The position numbers and the translations under genes are program-made. DNA of 18,317 nt from a virus (taxonomy: Duplodnaviria; Heunggongvirae; Uroviricota; Caudoviricetes): the IMG/VR virus record IMGVR_UViG_2519103024_000008; one strand, written 5' to 3'. Below, one piece after another: positions 612 to 12,542 of the stretch. The number at the start of each line of letters is the position of its first letter. Position 1 is the stretch's first letter. Below the pieces are notes generated by a model. It saw only the letters and a program-made list of their open reading frames with translations, searched no databases and was not told where the DNA came from.

Positions 612-1280
612 ATGGTGAAATCAATGAAAAAAAACACAGATGATGGGGCTAAAATTTACACACCACTTACCCTAAAGCTTTATGACTGGTGGGTTTTGGG
701 AGTATCAAATCGGCTTGCATGGGGATGTCCTACAAAGGAACACCTTCTTCCACACTTTCTGGAACATGTAGGTAACAACCATCTGGATATTGGTGTTGGA
801 ACTGGGTTTTACCTTACTCACGTACCTGAGAGTAGTCTGATATCTTTAATGGATTTGAACGAAGCTAGCCTGAACGCGGCATCTACAAGGGCTGGGGAAT
901 CAAAAATTAAACATAAAATTAGCCATGATGTTTTTGAACCTTATCCCGCGGCGTTACATGGTCAATTTGATTCCATTTCCATGTTTTACCTTCTTCACTG
1001 CCTGCCTGGAAATATATCTACAAAAAGCTGTGTAATACGCAATGCGGCGCAGGCCTTAACTGACGATGGAACTCTATACGGAGCCACAATTCTTGGCGAT
1101 GGAGTTGTGCACAATAGCTTCGGTCAAAAACTGATGCGCATTTACAATCAGAAAGGCATCTTTTCAAACACAAAAGATTCCGAAGAAGGCTTAACACATA
1201 TACTCTCAGAGCATTTCGAGAATGTTAAAACCAAGGTTCAAGGTACTGTAGTAATGTTTTCCGCTTCAGGGAAAAAATAG
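612..1280 (+). CDS. Class I SAM-dependent methyltransferase, YbcY-like prophage moron (222 aa; alternative start at 624)
   Basis: Glycine-rich motif I LDIGVGTGFY, followed by an acidic residue at the end of the next strand (SLISLMDLNE). Only plus-strand gene in the window, visibly AT-rich relative to flanking tail genes, and flanked by direct repeats. Position between two tfa-like genes matches ybcY of DLP12 (recalled). Confidence 0.7.
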   Translation: MVKSMKKNTDDGAKIYTPLTLKLYDWWVLGVSNRLAWGCPTKEHLLPHFLEHVGNNHLDIGVGTGFYLTHVPESSLISLMDLNEASLNAASTRAGESKIKHKISHDVFEPYPAALHGQFDSISMFYLLHCLPGNISTKSCVIRNAAQALTDDGTLYGATILGDGVVHNSFGQKLMRIYNQKGIFSNTKDSEEGLTHILSEHFENVKTKVQGTVVMFSASGKK

Positions 1281-1919: not shown

Positions 1920-4900
1920 TATGCAAGCCTCACAATATAGTTAAATGCGATGTTTTTGACGGTGTTTTCCGCGTTACCAGCAGCGTTAACGGTGATGGTG
2001 TGTCCATGTGAACCAATCGCAACGGAGTGCGTATGCGCACCAATACCTACAGTATGTGCATGTGCGCCAGAACTTGCTGCAGTACCAGACAGCGAGTGGG
2101 TATGAGCACCTGCTGACTGTGTCTGAATACGTTGATAATACGATCTACGGGAAGAAGTCCCCGGGCTTACTTGATACTGTGAATCCTGGACATAAGTGAA
2201 CCCACCGCCATCATAAAATGCTAACGCAGAACCGCCGCCTCCTGGCCAACGAATACCATTACCATGAGTATGATCACCGGCAGACCCCGTAGAGCCACTC
2301 AGACTGTGCGTATGCGCCCCGGTGTTATTCGTGGATTTGGTTCCGTAATCAAACGACGATGTGTTTTTCGTCCCCAAATCCGTACTGGATGCGCTGGCGC
2401 TGTGGGTGTGCGATTTAATGCCGTCCTGTTCCTGAGACAATACGGCACGACCACTGGCGGGTTTGCCCTTAATCGTCCAGCCACGCATATCAGGGATCAC
2501 GCCTGACGGATAAGCGGCTGCAAGTTTTGGGTATGCAGATTTGTCAAAAGTCTGCCCCTGCATCAGGGCATAGCCAGACGGAACGGTATCTGATGGCCAC
2601 GGGATTGGTGCGCCAGGCGGATAAAACTGCTCTGATGGCGTATAGAGTGAATAAACTGTACCGTCCGTTAACCCTTCCGGCTTATTAGCAGAATATGCTG
2701 GTGACGTATGAATCGTCACGCTGGCATTACTGGTATAATCCCATTGAATATTTACACCAGTCGCATAATTTCCGATTGCAACGTAAATATCGTAAGTATC
2801 ACCAGATGTATTGACCCAGGCAAAATTTGTAAACCCTGTCGATGTGCGCTGCCATAAAGCACCAGTAATCCCCTTCGGATTACCATTACCTGCACGCAAA
2901 ACAAGTTCAGATATACCTGCCTGTTGAGGTGACCCCACGTTAAATCCCGCACCACCAATCAACGTAATTGAAACAACAGAACTCGCCTGTGGCATGGTTA
3001 CCGTTGCTAATTTGAACCAACCAGCACCACCGCTGAATGACATTGTTGTTGAGTTAAGCGTACCAATATCTTTCGGCGTCAGTGTTATATCCGCTGAAAG
3101 CGCCTTACCATTCACCTTACGGGCAGAAGGTACCCGACCATTCGCATTATTATTAGCTGCTTTCACTGCTTTCGGTGTCGCGGCAAGCGTTTCAGATGCG
3201 CTGTTNNNNNNNNNNNNNNNNNNNNNNNNNNNNNNNNNNNNNNNNNNNNNNNNNNNNNNNNNNNNNNNNNNNNNNNNNNNNNNNNNNNNNNNNNNNNNNN
3301 NNNNNNNNNNNNNNNNNNNNNNNNNNNNNNNNNNNNNNNNNNNNNNNNNNNNNNNNNNNNNNNNNNNNNNNNNNNNNNNNNNNNNNNNNNNNNNNNNNNN
3401 NNNNNNNNNNNNNNNNNNNNNNNNNNNNNNNNNNNNNNNNNNNNNNNNNNNNNNNNNNNNNNNNNNNNNNNNNNNNNNNNNNNNNNNNNNNNNNNNNNNN
3501 NNNNNNNNNNNNNNNNNNNNNNNNNNNNNNNNNNNNNNNNNNNNNNNNNNNNNNNNNNNNNNNNNNNNNNNNNNNNNNNNNNNNNNNNNNNNNNNNNNNN
3601 NNNNNNNNNNNNNNNNNNNNNNNNNNNNNNNNNNNNNNNNNNNNNNNNNNNNNNNNNNNNNNNNNNNNNNNNNNNNNNNNNNNNNNNNNNNNNNNNNNNN
3701 NNNNNNNNNNNNNNNNNNNNNNNNNNNNNNNNNNNNNNNNNNNNNNNNNNNNNNNNNNNNNNNNNNNNNNNNNNNNNNNNNNNNNNACTCGCGTCGTTGT
3801 CGTAGCGTCCTGAGCAGTATATTTCCCGTTAGCAAGGTCATAGGCTGCCTTTACCGACTTTGGCGTTGCCGCCAGCATTTCAGATGTGCTGTTGGTTGCA
3901 CTACTGAGCTGGACAATTCCTTTTTGTGCTGTCGTAGCGTCCTGAGCAGTATATTTCCCGTTAGCAAGGTCATAGGCTGCCTTTACCGACTTTGGCGTTG
4001 CCGCCAGCATTTCAGATGTGCTGTTGGTCGCGTTGCTAAGCTGAACTATCCCTTTCTGTGCTGTCGTTGCATCCTGTGCGGTGTATTTCCCGTTAGCCAG
4101 CTCATACGCGGCCTTAACGGCTTTTGGCGTTGCCGCCAGTGACTCGGAAGTGCTGTTAGTCGCACTGCTGAGCTGTACTATCCCCTTTTTCGTCGTGCTC
4201 GCATCCTCAAGCGCCACGGCGGATGCAATATCCTCTGCCCGTTTTGCCGCTGTCTCAGCGCGCGTTGCCGCGGATTCCGCCGTACTTTTGCTCTGAGCTG
4301 CCGCCGTCGCACTGCCAGCTGCCTCTGTCGCCTTCGTGGATGCCGTCGTGGCGCTGCCCTTTGCTGCTGACGCCTGTCTGGTCGCCTCATCTTTTGAAGC
4401 AGACGCAGATGATGCCGATGACGCCGCCGAACTGGCGGACGATGCGGCAGCCGTTTTTGAGGATTCTGCGCTGGTTTCCGACGCTTTCGCGTTCGTCTTG
4501 GATGTCTTCGCTGCGGAAGCAGACCTCGCTGCTGCGCTGGCCTGTACAGCGGCTTCGCCAGCCTTCGTTGTGGCTGTTGAAGCAGACGATGCAGCACTTT
4601 CTGCCGATTTTCCGGCGGCGGTGGCACTGGCTGAGGCCTGCCCGGCACTTGTTGACGCGGCACTGGCAGATAATGCAGCCGCTGTTTTTGAGTCTGCCGC
4701 AGCTGAGGCGCTCTGTCCCGCTGCCGTTTCAGAAGACCTGGCGTTCGTCTCGGACGTTTTTGCCGCCTTCGCAGAATTTGCTGCCGCCGTTGCCGAGGAA
4801 GCTGCGCTGCTGGCGCTCGAGGCTGCGTTCGTTTCTGATGATTTTGCCGCCTCTTTTGAAGCCGACGCATCCCGTGCTGAAGTGGCTGCTTCTGACGCTT

Positions 4901-5733: not shown

Positions 5734-6333
5734 TCAGAAACGGTATCCGATACCAACAATAAATGCATCCGTTCGCCAGTCGCCACTACCGGAACCTTCA
5801 TAAGCAAGGTCAATGGTCACGGATTCGGTCGGGTTAAACTGCACGCCAGCCCCCCACGCCAGAGACGTGTTGCTGTGGCGACCGTCATCACTTCCGGTCA
5901 GCACATCGTGCGTTTTCCCCTTGTTGTCAGTTACGCGGAGATAATCCCCGGAGAAAGTCGACACACGGCTGTAAGCCACACCCGCCATCGAATACGCGCT
6001 GAACCATTCATTCACGCGTACAGACGGCCCCGCCATCACGCTGAACCAGCGGTTACGCACGGAATCTTCATGCCAGCGGGTATCGCTGTAGTGCGTTTTT
6101 TGCTCATCCTCAGCATTGGCATAACTGAAGGACGTAATCAGCCCCAGCGCGTCCGTAAACTCATAACGGTATTTCACGTTAATCCCGTTCAGATTATCGC
6201 TGCCGGGAGCGTTCGTACGGGCATGAAGATACCCCGCGCTCAGTGTGGACTGATGTTCAGACGCCCATGCAGGCGCACCGGATACGGACAGACAGATGGC
6301 TGCGGACAAAATGACTGCACAAACTTTACGCAT
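5734..6333 (-). CDS. lom: Outer-membrane beta-barrel protein Lom (Ail/Lom family), 199 aa
   Basis: Signal peptide MRKVCAVILSAAICLSVSGAPAWA and C-terminal AYEGSGSGDWRTDAFIVGIGYRF ending in Phe, matching lambda Lom as recalled. SD GAGG upstream of the ATG at 6331-6333. Sits between J and stf as in lambda. Confidence 0.85.
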   Translation of the reverse strand: MRKVCAVILSAAICLSVSGAPAWASEHQSTLSAGYLHARTNAPGSDNLNGINVKYRYEFTDALGLITSFSYANAEDEQKTHYSDTRWHEDSVRNRWFSVMAGPSVRVNEWFSAYSMAGVAYSRVSTFSGDYLRVTDNKGKTHDVLTGSDDGRHSNTSLAWGAGVQFNPTESVTIDLAYEGSGSGDWRTDAFIVGIGYRF

Positions 6334-6354: not shown

Positions 6355-6381
6355 AATAAAAAAGGCGCCATTTCTGGCGCC
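6355..6381 (-). terminator. Rho-independent terminator between J and lom
   Basis: Minus strand: GGCGCC-AGAAAT-GGCGCC hairpin (6364-6381) followed by TTTTTTATT (revcomp of 6355-6363), about 20 nt downstream of the J stop. Confidence 0.5.
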
Positions 6382-6400
6382 CGTATATGGGTTATAAAAT

Positions 6401-9400
6401 TCAGCTGATACTGATGCCTGCGGTGGCTTTCTTCATCACCACAACCAGCAAATCGCTGATACTTGCTGTGGGATACCAGTTATTCACCAGCCATGCTGAC
6501 ACCGAAAACTCCAGCGTCATGTGGCCGCGACCAGCTGGCATATCAATAACACCACTGTAAATCAGCGTATTATCCAGCGCGGTACGGTTATAAATTTCAG
6601 CACCGTTTTTCCGTACTATCAGGCGGCATGACGAATAAATATCGTTATTCTCCCGCTCATGTTTAGCGCCGCTGAATGCCACCGCCGGAATAACAATCTG
6701 CCGGTCAAACGGCTGATCGTCATAAACCCTGACGGTGATGGTCCCTGATGGCCACCGTTCCGGTGCACGGGAGTCCCGGGGGAAAGCTTTGCCCACTGTT
6801 TTAACGAGATCGCCTTCAATCTGGTTGGCGGACAATTTTCCCAGAACCCGACAGTTCTCGTTAATCGTGACGTTGTTGAGCGTCCCGGAGTTCGCATTCA
6901 CGTTACCGCTGATATCGGCATTTTTCGCCGTCAGCCGCCCGTCCGGTGTCAGGGAAAATGCCGGAGGATTACCGCCGCTGGTAATGGTCGGAGCCGTCAG
7001 GCGTTTCAGGAACACGTCGTTCATGAATATCTGATCGCCCTGACCAACAAACATCGGCTTTGTGTTGCCATTCGCAGGATTAATCATCGCAATCCGGTCA
7101 GCAGCCAGAAGCACCTGACTCTGCATACCTGCTGGCGTATTCTCAATACCGGCTCCGATACCCGCAATATAAAGGCGTCCGTCCTTCATCTGCTGCAGTT
7201 TCACGGCCCACATGCTGTTCAGGTTATTATTTGTATCAACCTGAACTTTCTGTATCTGCTGGATTGCCGCACTCTGGTCTTCCAGTTTTTTATTGACGGT
7301 CTGCGTGATTTCATTGCTGACATTCGTAATGGACGTCCTGATTTCAGCCAGGTCCGGCGCAAGCTGACCGTTATCAATCTGCGTCCACAACTCCTGGGCC
7401 AGATGTGTTTTCCCGATTTCTCCTTTGAAAAAATCCAGGTAACCTTCCGCATCATCGCTCGCCCGACCGACAGCCTCCACGAATGCCGATTTGCCAACGG
7501 TGTTCACACTGCGAACGTAAAAATAATAATCATGGCCCGGTTTGATATTGATACTGGCGGCTATCCAGTACAGCGCCGTACCAAGATAGCGGGCTGTGGT
7601 TTCAACCTGCCTGATATCGGTAATCCGCTTTTCCGAGAACCAGAACTCAAACTGTACCGTCGGGTCATAAACAGCAAGATGCGGCGTGGCGGTTATCTGA
7701 AAATAGCCCGGCGTCAGCTCAATCCTCGACGGTGCTGCCGGTGCGGCAATCCGGAACGATACCGACGCCGGATCGCCCTGCTGCCCCCGGGCATTTACCG
7801 CCCGGACTGTCAGCCTGTAGTTCCCCAGCGCCAGTTGCGTGAAGCGGTATGTGGTTTCCGTCGTCCGGGCCGTGCTGACCAGTCGCTCACTGCCGTCGTC
7901 CGCTGTTACGGTCAGACGGAGCAGGAAGCTCACGCCCTTCACCACCTTCGGTGTGTCCCATCGCGCCAGCACCTGATATTCCCCGCTGTCTGCAGTGACT
8001 TCGGCGGTCAGGTGCTGCACTGCTGGCGGCGTGACACCATTCACCGTGCCGCTCTGGTCACCGTCAAAGTGCGCCCCGTTATCCACGATGGCTTCTTTCT
8101 CCGGTACATGCTGCACGGCGGTGATGGCATACGTGCCGTCATCGTTCTCACGGATACTCACGCAGCGGAACAGGCGCTGGCGCAGCGTCGGCAGCTTCAG
8201 CCCCCACACGCTGTATTCTGCAACGCCGTCAGGAACACGGCTCACTTTCACCTTCACGCCGTCGGTGACGGACTGGACCTCCACGCTGACCGGATTACCC
8301 TGACCGTCAACCAGGCTTATCAGCGTGGTACCGGAGGATGGCAGCGTGATTTCACGGTCGAGCGTCAGCGTCCGGGTCTGGCTGTTCACCGCCAGCACGC
8401 GCCCGCCAATGCTGATCCCCGCATAGTCATCATCGCAGATTTCAATAACATCACCCGGTACATGGCGAAGCCCTTCTGCGCCGACGCTGAAATCCACGGT
8501 CTGCGTCTCCAGCAGTTCCGTTTAATCAGCCACAGCCCGGCGCGGTGTGCCTGCCCCCGGCTGGTCAGCCAAAGGCATCCATCTTCGTGACGTTACGACC
8601 GTAACGGGCAATGGCCTGCGTGTCCTCCACAGCTCTGTCNCCGTCTCCCAGCCGTTATCCGGTCAATCCAGTTCANNNNNNNNNNNNNNNNNNNNNNNNN
8701 NNNNNNNNNNNNNNNNNNNNNNNNNNNNNNNNNNNNNNNNNNNNNNNNNNNNNNNNNNNNNNNNNNNNNNNNNNNNNNNNNNNNNNNNNNNNNNNNNNNN
8801 NNNNNNNNNNNNNNNNNNNNNNNNNNNNNNNNNNNNNNNNNNNNNNNNNNNNNNNNNNNNNNNNNNNNNNNNNNNNNNNNNNNNNNNNNNNNNNNNNNNN
8901 NNNNNNNNNNNNNNNNNNNNNNNNNNNNNNNNNNNNNNNNNNNNNNNNNNNNNNNNNNNNNNNNNNNNNNNNNNNNNNNNNNNNNNNNNNNNNNNNNNNN
9001 NNNNNNNNNNNNNNNNNNNNNNNNNNNNNNNNNNNNNNNNNNNNNNNNNNNNNNNNNNNNNNNNNNNNNNNNNNNNNNNNNNNNNNNNNNNNNNNNNNNN
9101 NNNNNNNNNNNNNNNNNNNNNNNNNNNNNNNNNNNNNNNNNNNNNNNNNNNNNNNNNNNNNNNNNNNNNNNNNNNNNNNNNNNNNNNNNNNNNNNNNNNN
9201 NNNNNNNNNNNNNNNNNNNNNNNNNNNNNNNNNNNNNNNNNNNNNNNNNNNNNNNNNNNNNNNNNNNNNNNNNNNNNNNNNNNNNNNNNNNNNNNNNNNN
9301 NNNNNNNNNNNNNNNNNNNNNNNNNNNNNNNNNNNNNNNNNNNNNNNNNNNNNNNNNNNNNNNNNNNNNNNNNNNNNNNNNNNNNNNNNNNNNNNNNNNN

Positions 9401-9926
9401 NNNNNNNNNNNNNNNNNNNNNNNNNNNNNNNNNNNNNNNNNNNNNNNNNNNNNNNNNNNNNNNNNNNNNNNNNNNNNNNNNNNNNNNNNNNNNNNNNNNN
9501 CTGGATCTGAACCAGCAGGCGGACTTCCGACGGATTCCTGTCCTCCTTTGAGGTGGTTTCCACCAGTGCCTGCACACCGAAGGTAAAGCGCAGACGGTCG
9601 ATGTTTGCCGACGTGATGGTCCGGGTGATCGGCGTGTCATATTTCACTTCCGTACCCAGCACCGTCTCGGAGCCGGAGGATTCAAATCCCTCCGGCGGTG
9701 TCTGCTCCTGCTCACCTGCCCGGAACACCACCGTGACACCGGATATATTGGTATTCCCCTCACTGTCCAGCACCGGCGTACTGTTCAGCAGCACGCTTTT
9801 TAATCCGTCCACCGGACCTTCAACCGGCCCTTCGCTGATGGCATCGATCACACTCAGCAGCTGCGTGGACTTCAGGTTGTCCCTCGCTTCGCGCGGGGTA
9901 TGCCCCTTACTGCTTCCTTTACCCAT
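6401..9926 (-). CDS. J: Tail tip / host-specificity protein J (central tail fiber), interrupted by gap 8676-9500 and with frame breaks in 8498-8675
   Basis: N-terminus [54 protein letters not shown] and the long central region match lambda J as recalled. SD GAGGA precedes the ATG at 9924-9926. The last ~150 aa differ from lambda. The frame is restored by assuming 4 single-base deletions next to the gap. Confidence 0.85.
8676..9500. other. Assembly gap (825 N) inside J; isolated ambiguous base at 8640
   Basis: Run of N read directly from the sequence. Confidence 1.
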
Positions 9927-9992: not shown

Positions 9993-10331
9993 TTATTTAC
10001 ATGCATTAACACTATCAGCAAAAATTTTTGGCGTTAATGCTGGTACACGTTCATAAAGAGTAAAACTACTGCCATTTCCTGCTTTTTTGATATCAAGCAC
10101 AACATCATATCCCCCCATAGCCTGTGGAACTAAAAGGCTTACCCCATTCTCAATAGGAAGGGATGTTATAGGTGTTCCATTACCAGCCCATTGTCTGGAT
10201 ATGCAGCCTGACAATTCATCAATATTTTTTAATGAATTACCTTCCATTACAGGTTTTCCGGATTTTACGTAATCCAAAGATTTACATCCTGTTAAGGCAA
10301 TAATCGTGCAGAATAAAATCGTTTTGTTCAT
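9993..10331 (-). CDS. Small predicted lipoprotein (112-aa precursor), moron inserted between I and J
   Basis: From the ATG at 10329-10331: MNKTILFCTIIALTGC, a hydrophobic signal peptide with lipobox LTGC, giving a ~96-aa mature protein. The gene and both flanks are strongly AT-rich. The ORF track starts 4 codons earlier at a TTG. No family recognised. Confidence 0.6.
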   Translation of the reverse strand: MNKTILFCTIIALTGCKSLDYVKSGKPVMEGNSLKNIDELSGCISRQWAGNGTPITSLPIENGVSLLVPQAMGGYDVVLDIKKAGNGSSFTLYERVPALTPKIFADSVNACK

Positions 10332-11788: not shown

Positions 11789-12542
11789 NNNNNNNNNNNN
11801 NNNNNNNNNNNNNNNNNNNNNNNNNNNNNNNNNNNNNNNNNNNNNNNNNNNNNNNNNNNNNNNNNNNNNNNNNNNNNNNNNNNNNNNNNNNNNNNNNNNN
11901 NNNNNNNNNNNNNNNNNNNNNNNNNNNNNNNNNNNNNNNNNNNNNNNNNNNNNNNNNNNNNNNNNNNNNNNNNNNNNNNNNNNNNNNNNNNNNNNNNNNN
12001 NNNNNNNNNNNNNNNNNNNNNNNNNNNNNNNNNNNNNNNNNNNNNNNNNNNNNNNNNNNNNNNNNNNNNNNNNNNNNNNNNNNNNNNNNNNNNNNNNNNN
12101 NNNNNNNNNNNNNNNNNNNNNNNNNNNNNNNNNNNNNNNNNNNNNNNNNNNNNNNNNNNNNNNNNNNNNNNNNNNNNNNNNNNNNNNNNNNNNNNNNNNN
12201 NNNNNNNNNNNNNNNNNNNNNNNNNNNNNNNNNNNNNNNNNNNNNNNNNNNNNNNNNNNNNNNNNNNNNNNNNNNNNNNNNNNNNNNNNNNNNNNNNNNN
12301 NNNNNNNNNNNNNNNNNNNNNNNNNNNNNNNNNNNNNNNNNNNNNNNNNNNNNNNNNNNNNNNNNNNNNNNNNNNNNNNNNNNNNNNNNNNNNNNNNNNN
12401 NNNNNNNNNNNNNNNNNNNNNNNNNNNNNNNNNNNNNNNNNNNNNNNNNNNNNNNNNNNNNNNNNNNNNNNNNNNNNNNNNNNNNNNNNNNNNNNNNNNN
12501 NNNNNNNNNNNNNNNNNNNNNNNNNNNNNNNNNNNNNNNNNN
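11789..12542. other. Assembly gap (754 N) covering the M 3' end and most of L
   Basis: Run of N read directly from the sequence. Confidence 1.

Follow-up and report, generated by a model that had tools for sequence, protein, structure and literature searches.

Which receptor does the tail protein J of a lambdoid prophage recognize when its C-terminus no longer resembles that of lambda? The question is raised by IMG/VR virus record IMGVR_UViG_2519103024_000008, a stretch of 18,317 nucleotides (hereafter the window). It is the tail region of a lambdoid E. coli prophage, read on the minus strand in the order Z/U/V/G/T/H, M, L, K, I, a small lipoprotein open reading frame (ORF), J, lom, stf and tfa. 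The nearest genomes are prophages integrated at ompW, for example in E. coli strain GON1437 (97.8%). An earlier note on this DNA, made from the sequence alone, had claimed that the last ~150 amino acids of J differ from the LamB-binding end of lambda J and that the receptor is therefore probably not LamB. Our answer is that the end of J is a receptor-binding module of a widespread class. With a probability of roughly 0.8, its receptor is OmpC, not LamB, and use of OmpC depends on the allele, that of K-12 serving poorly.

The 698-residue C-terminal fragment of J, taken from ORF 6401..8497 on the minus strand, was aligned with lambda J (NC_001416), and identity was taken for each lambda domain. 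The peptide quoted in the earlier note for the C-terminus is the true translation of this ORF. Amino acid identity is 96.8% over lambda residues 462-808, 29.6% over the alpha-helical shaft (809-861), where the window J has 28 extra residues, 77.4% over the central straight fibre (862-976), and 43.6% over the receptor-binding domain (977-1132). Proper alignment thus leaves the claimed divergence standing, with 42.0% identity over the last 150 residues, and the interval that had been given for it, 6401-6900, agrees almost exactly with the divergent block. In nucleotides the change is abrupt: there is a sharp break at about 6878, on one side of which (6878-7057) identity to lambda is 88-90%, and on the other (6401-6877) about 50%. 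The earlier description of the central part of J as lambda-like is right for residues 462-808, but it missed a second divergent block at 7058-7417, which is of phage 21 type and includes a helical shaft with 96.3% amino acid identity to phage 21. Over the whole J body (lambda residues 462-976), identity to phage 21 is 94-96%, and only the terminal domain departs from it (65%). All mosaic boundaries are given in Table 1. As a separate observation, J keeps the Phe equivalent to lambda F924 in the motif QIFMNDVFL (about 7010, minus strand). In lambda J this residue is the trigger of the prophage-encoded abortive-infection nuclease HepS, and Gifsy prophages have Ile at the equivalent position, which avoids self-triggering (PMC13043305).

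Is the divergent block a receptor-binding domain at all? The Pfam family PF12421 (Ig_GpJ_C), which is the gpJ C-terminal receptor-binding domain, matches it with 132.9 bits against a cut-off of 26.2 and is covered over its whole profile (1-135 of 135). The domain order of the fragment is Ig_J, Ig_J_second, Phage_Tail_Tip (411-539) and Ig_GpJ_C. Positions 999-1163 of the NCBIfam profile lambda_TipJ match the C-terminal 159 residues of J, and the sequence also matches the solved structures of 'A8 gpJ 713' (9wca/9wcb, E=3.7e-69) and lambda gpJ (8xcj, E=1.5e-47). Judged by these profile and structure matches, the divergent block is a true gpJ receptor-binding domain.

Comparison of J proteins sorts such domains into classes, of which A and B are named by this analysis. 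Class A includes the window, 2G7b, Stx2a_WGPS2, the PPompW phages, 640R1, PhiR55_1, GON1437, ATCC 11775 and others, with 92-100% identity to the window domain. The corresponding value is 62-65% for class B (phage 21, BP-4795, phi330), 44% for lambda, 42% for phage 434 and 20% for HK97, each of the last three standing for a class of its own. The window domain does not belong to the lambda type, since it has only the 43.6% identity mentioned above and differs in every loop region (L1-L4). Nor does it belong to class B, for which identity of at least ~77%, a short loop 1 and an extended hairpin 2 would be expected; the window domain has 62-65% identity and carries a 4-residue insertion and a 5-residue deletion at these two loops. 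Identity to the 434 type is 42.1%, again outside the class. What places it in class A is near-identity and equal loop lengths with a prophage gpJ domain named 1A2, the hairpin tip being different (RENND in the window, KEHTD in 1A2). One class A phage, 2G7b, joins the class A receptor domain to a lambda-type shaft, so that shaft and receptor modules assort independently.

How common is each class in nature? DNA of ~470-490 nucleotides per domain class was searched by megablast against 5,426 complete E. coli genomes. Class A was found in 3,383 of them (62%), at 7,603 places (median 2 per genome, maximum 10). The 434 type was found in 2,112 genomes (2,858 places) and the phage 21 type in about 1,086 records at identity of 90% or more. 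The lambda type was found in only 98 genomes (1.8%), and the examples listed are largely K-12 and BL21 lines. Class A is the commonest natural receptor-domain class in E. coli prophages, and because the lambda type is in 98 genomes and class A in 3,383, divergence from lambda is the norm. In the phage collection the lambda-type domain was seen in 22 records only, all others being less than 80% identical to it. Different classes may also be found together: besides the prophage with a J domain 100% identical to that of the window, ATCC 11775 (NZ_CP033092.2, ~2.84 Mb) holds another one with J domain DNA that matches phage 21 at 100%, and a single genome thus carries two J classes.

Membership in class A leads to direct evidence on the receptor. 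Brödel et al. (Nature 2024, PMC11338833) joined lambda J at amino acid 964 to the C-termini of two natural prophage gpJ proteins, 'A8' and '1A2'. We read the DNA of both from the supplement of that paper as processed by optical character recognition (OCR), using frameshift-tolerant alignment. 1A2 falls in class A: 151 of 161 readable codons are identical to the window (at least 93.8%), without gaps and with the same loop lengths. Most of the mismatches look like OCR errors, and there are about 5 real differences over 169 amino acids, among them KEHTD/RENND, AGHGH/AGRGH and GITIS/GISIS (1A2 given first). A8 falls in class B and is 95.7% identical to phi330. The OmpC dependence and LamB independence of 1A2 are results of the literature. 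In a ΔlamB ΔompC MG1655 strain provided with different OmpC alleles, the 1A2 chimera gave at least 76% delivery at the top multiplicity of infection (MOI) with 20 of 23 alleles and failed with G1, G2 and G40 (PMC11338833). The figures for G1 match those for MG1655 OmpC, and 1A2 fails with K-12 OmpC (PMC11338833). In wild-type MG1655, which is LamB+, 1A2 reached 5% of cells at an MOI of 50, compared with 98% for wild-type lambda at an MOI of 174 (PMC11338833). A follow-up paper of the same group states that 1A2 recognises OmpC, not LamB. For 1A2 we relied on what the main text and Extended Data Fig. 1 of PMC11338833 give, instead of on Extended Data Fig. 2. The source file of the latter figure (supplementary file 10) appears to be in error: for both 1A2 and A8, panel C (EDL933 OmpC) repeats the values of panel B (MG1655 OmpC), at odds with the main text.

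Other members of the family can be set beside 1A2. Among J proteins of known receptor, lambda uses LamB and phage 434 uses OmpC; phi330 uses OmpC according to Keio knockout and complementation; phage 21 (OL657228) natively uses LamB, and the single J change I1025T adds OmpC. The window J has Leu at the position of I1025. The published A8-OmpC complex (PDB 9wcb) contains three chains each of 'A8 gpJ 713' and OmpC. The earlier note had proposed such a comparison with J proteins of known receptors, and when it is made with lambda, 434, phage 21 and phi330, the closest tested protein is the OmpC-using 1A2. For the class A phages PhiR55_1, PhiR46_1, PhiR49_2, 2G7b and 640R1 we also sought receptor data elsewhere; Frazão et al. 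(2019) name ompC and lamB merely as candidate loci, and the SNIPE paper reports only ManYZ dependence.

Where on the domain might the choice of receptor be made? The indels between classes A and B fall exactly at receptor-facing loops. Loop 1 has four residues more than its class B counterpart 'RTS----TY' (phage 21, phi330, A8), differs from lambda in sequence and is shorter than loop 1 of 434. The counterpart in phi330, T918-Y921, is discussed as a receptor-facing loop (PMC12502783). Hairpin 2 lacks five residues relative to ENFNSNNQQS, the hairpin of class B (HERENND-----IY in class A, HENFNSNNQQSYWY in class B). For the phi330 counterpart, E953-S962, the authors predict entry into the OmpC barrel, and by alignment hairpin 2 of the window is likely the porin-inserting hairpin. 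Its tip is the most polymorphic spot of class A, being RENND in the window, KEHTD in 1A2, and REHTD or QDHTD in others, while the rest of the domain is 93-100% identical. Such hypervariability fits diversifying selection on OmpC allele recognition. Loop region 4 diverges from the lambda sequence RHSADIPPYTF, and the phi330 segment with which it aligns is predicted to contact the OmpC rim.

These observations give the following scenario. Positions 6404-6877 (minus strand) encode a swapped-in receptor-binding module, Ig-like and presumably trimeric, of the lambda fold family, with downward-facing loops that differ from those of lambda in length and sequence. The loops of the J trimer would dock into the trimeric porin OmpC instead of LamB, most natural OmpC alleles being recognised and the K-12 allele not. 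Docking may then trigger fibre rearrangement and tail opening, as described for lambda, whose Ig-like domain puts four bottom loops into LamB. We infer that the exact window variant, with the tip RENND instead of KEHTD, shares the behaviour of 1A2 and that the prophage has an intact J. The nearest other class gives further support, since class B includes the OmpC users A8 and phi330.

Several points weigh against this scenario. The 1A2 experiments cover another variant, from which the window differs at the tip that likely enters the porin (RENND/KEHTD) and at AGRGH/AGHGH, and the example of phage 21 makes clear that a single J substitution can change porin use. The identity to 1A2 is a lower bound that refers to readable codons only, because the OCR'd PDF contains frameshifts. 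What was measured for 1A2 is transduction by a lambda chimera, not adsorption of a native phage. Finally, a run of N and nearby indels cast doubt on the intactness of the window J.

Could the window domain bind LamB after all? Phage 21 gives this idea its strength, since its domain is only 45% identical to lambda and yet natively uses LamB, it belongs to the second-closest class to the window (65%), and the J bodies of the two are nearly the same. The same example makes the reasoning 'divergent from lambda, so not LamB' unsound: class B spans LamB (phage 21) and OmpC (phi330, A8), and hence how far a domain lies from lambda is no guide to its receptor. We agree with the earlier note that LamB is probably not the receptor here, but on the ground of the published 1A2 experiments instead of divergence. 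The near-identical 1A2 hardly entered LamB+ K-12 cells and worked in ΔlamB cells with a suitable OmpC; moreover, indels in two of the receptor-facing loops separate class A from phage 21. LamB is therefore a very improbable receptor for the window J. A shift to another porin is a somewhat less remote idea, though still unlikely. It holds that the RENND subtype uses OmpF or a porin of NmpC/PhoE type, or an OmpC allele set markedly different from that of 1A2. The position of the polymorphic tip speaks for it, as the phi330 hairpin with which it aligns is the one predicted to go into the barrel, and so does the fact that a few mutations in J are enough to bring either lambda or phage 21 to OmpF or OmpC. 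On the other side are the small number of real differences from 1A2 and the unchanged loop lengths. In addition, 1A2 tolerates 20 of 23 OmpC alleles, which indicates that recognition is not very allele-sensitive.

Then is J perhaps a relic in a defective prophage, its domain without current receptor function? Many E. coli lambdoid prophages are defective. In the assembled J there is a run of 825 N at 8676-9500, besides a lone N at 8640. When J is compared with ATCC 11775, four 1-base deletions in homopolymers are seen in the ~160 bases before this run (window 8520-9500). The run stands where ATCC 11775 has 775 bases, and this replacement puts J out of frame in the assembly. Further N runs are seen elsewhere in the window (581 bases at 3206-3786 and 754 bases at 11789-12542). 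Since the indels are in homopolymers directly beside the N run, as assembly artefacts typically are, they and the N runs in J are probably artefacts of assembly or masking. The J copy of ATCC 11775 is otherwise 99.8% identical to that of the window. Both ATCC 11775 and GON1437 carry prophages with an intact J of 1,159 amino acids and a full tail gene set. The region 6401-6900 is clean, the protein it encodes is 100% identical to the C-terminus of ATCC 11775 J, and the receptor-binding domain protein is found identical in genomes other than the source, E. coli NMBU-W12E19 being a further strain with the identical domain. We therefore consider a relic as improbable as LamB binding, and OmpC remains the preferred receptor.

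There is a further question of the small lipoprotein gene upstream of J, for which the earlier note considered a role as a receptor-masking factor, linking it to the J domain. The gene encodes 112 amino acids with a lipobox LTGC, Lys at +2 and two more Cys. With a GC content of 34-39% against 55-60% in the flanks, and a terminator-like hairpin of its own (9969-9949), it has the marks of a moron. No match was found in Pfam or PADLOC and none of meaning in NCBIfam; the protein falls in PHROG 914, whose function is unknown. A single-sequence AlphaFold2 prediction gave an unusable model (predicted local distance difference test score, pLDDT, 35.6). HK97 bears unrelated morons at the I-J site, and its gp22 moron, considered as a relative, is not homologous. 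Is the lipoprotein coupled to the J domain class? It is present in 337 of the 5,426 genomes, whereas 3,383 carry a class A domain; none of the 57 class A phage records has it, and in the phage collection it has only two matches of ~30% identity. Ten sampled carriers had 8 class A and 2 434-type domains, which are all OmpC-type. We rejected this as a sign of coupling, since 8:2 is close to the background of 7,603 class A and 2,858 434-type places. There is thus no evidence of coupling between the lipoprotein and the J domain class, and the proposed link finds no support. If the masking idea is pursued, the relevant receptor is OmpC, of a non-K-12 allele, not LamB or FhuA. A bolder proposal combines both matters: the RENND subtype would use different OmpC alleles or a different porin, and the outer-membrane lipoprotein (9993-10331) would be a porin-directed superinfection-exclusion factor, in OmpC-binding lambdoid phages the counterpart of the FhuA-blocking lipoproteins Cor and Llp. 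We regard it as unlikely, a little more so than the shift of porin by itself.

The surroundings of J on its other side can be described briefly. The J stop codon is separated from lom by a GC-rich hairpin with a T-run behind it, an arrangement suggesting that lom is transcribed apart from the late tail operon. In phage 21 a terminator is annotated at the equivalent site. At the prophage end beyond tfa there is a gene for a class I S-adenosylmethionine (SAM)-dependent methyltransferase (612-1280, plus strand), annotated as such in the GON1437 homologue, which is probably a cargo gene.

Table 1. Coordinates of J, its mosaic parts, receptor-facing loops and neighbouring features in the window
Feature	Position	Strand	Basis or remark
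lom (Ail/Lom outer-membrane protein), downstream of J	5734..6333	-	Pfam PF06316, E=3e-126
Terminator-like hairpin then T-run, between J and lom	6363..6382	-	8-pair stem (6 G-C), then TTTTTATT
J end	last coding base 6404; stop codon 6401-6403	-	End of ORF 6401..8497
Class A receptor-binding module: C-terminal Ig-like domain and the last fibre turns before it	6404..6877	-	Nucleotide break relative to lambda; protein identities
PF12421 (Ig_GpJ_C), gpJ C-terminal receptor-binding domain	6404..6796	-	E=1e-38, fragment residues 568-698
Variable loop region 4	6461..6493	-	Aligns with phi330 A1015-P1020 (ANNWTP)
Variable hairpin 2, HERENNDIY (likely porin-inserting)	6635..6661	-	Class comparison
Variable loop 1, RDSRAPERW	6752..6778	-	Class comparison
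Lower central straight fibre, lambda-conserved	6878..7057	-	88-90% nucleotide identity to lambda
Second mosaic block, phage 21 type: alpha-helical shaft and upper fibre	7058..7417	-	24-65% nucleotide identity to lambda, 90-95% to phage 21
Lambda-like hub and two FNIII/Ig domains of J	7418..8497	-	90-100% nucleotide identity to lambda; Pfam Ig_J and Ig_J_second match
J N-terminal part	8498..9926	-	Broken in the assembly by N runs and homopolymer indels
J start	9926	-	ORF translation
Small lipoprotein moron between I and J, 112 amino acids (MNKTILFCTIIALTGC...)	9993..10331	-	GC content, terminator-like hairpin

What does this mean for lambdoid prophages in general? The receptor type of the present domain is largely known already, as a near-identical module has been shown to use OmpC, and its presence here is a routine mosaic swap; the feature otherwise raises no new question. 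The lesson is rather that receptor calls in these prophages belong to the domain class (A, B, 434, lambda), not to the distance from lambda. Even calls based on class are limited, as class B covers both LamB and OmpC users.

The closest known system is gpJ 1A2, with the same class A domain, the same length and the same loop lengths as the window. Its graft point at lambda amino acid 964 and the break in the window near lambda amino acid 976 are both in the same conserved fibre stretch, but 1A2 was tested on lambda J, while the window module sits on a phage-21-like J body. A8 and phi330 of class B are OmpC users of the same fold family, 62-67% identical and with a shared C-terminal motif, and A8 alone is seen in 9wca. 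Their loop 1 is 4 amino acids shorter and their hairpin 2 is 5 amino acids longer than in the window, and A8 works on K-12 OmpC while 1A2 does not. Phage 21 J shares the long helical shaft of the window J, but its receptor domain is of class B and 65% identical. Phage 434 J has a domain of the same family and binds OmpC as well; with 42% identity and longer loops 1 and 2, it forms a separate class. The lambda J domain (PDB 8xcj/8xck) is the same Pfam domain at the same position of the protein, 43.6% identical and different in all four loop regions, and the insertion of loops into a trimeric porin is presumably a feature that the window J shares with it.

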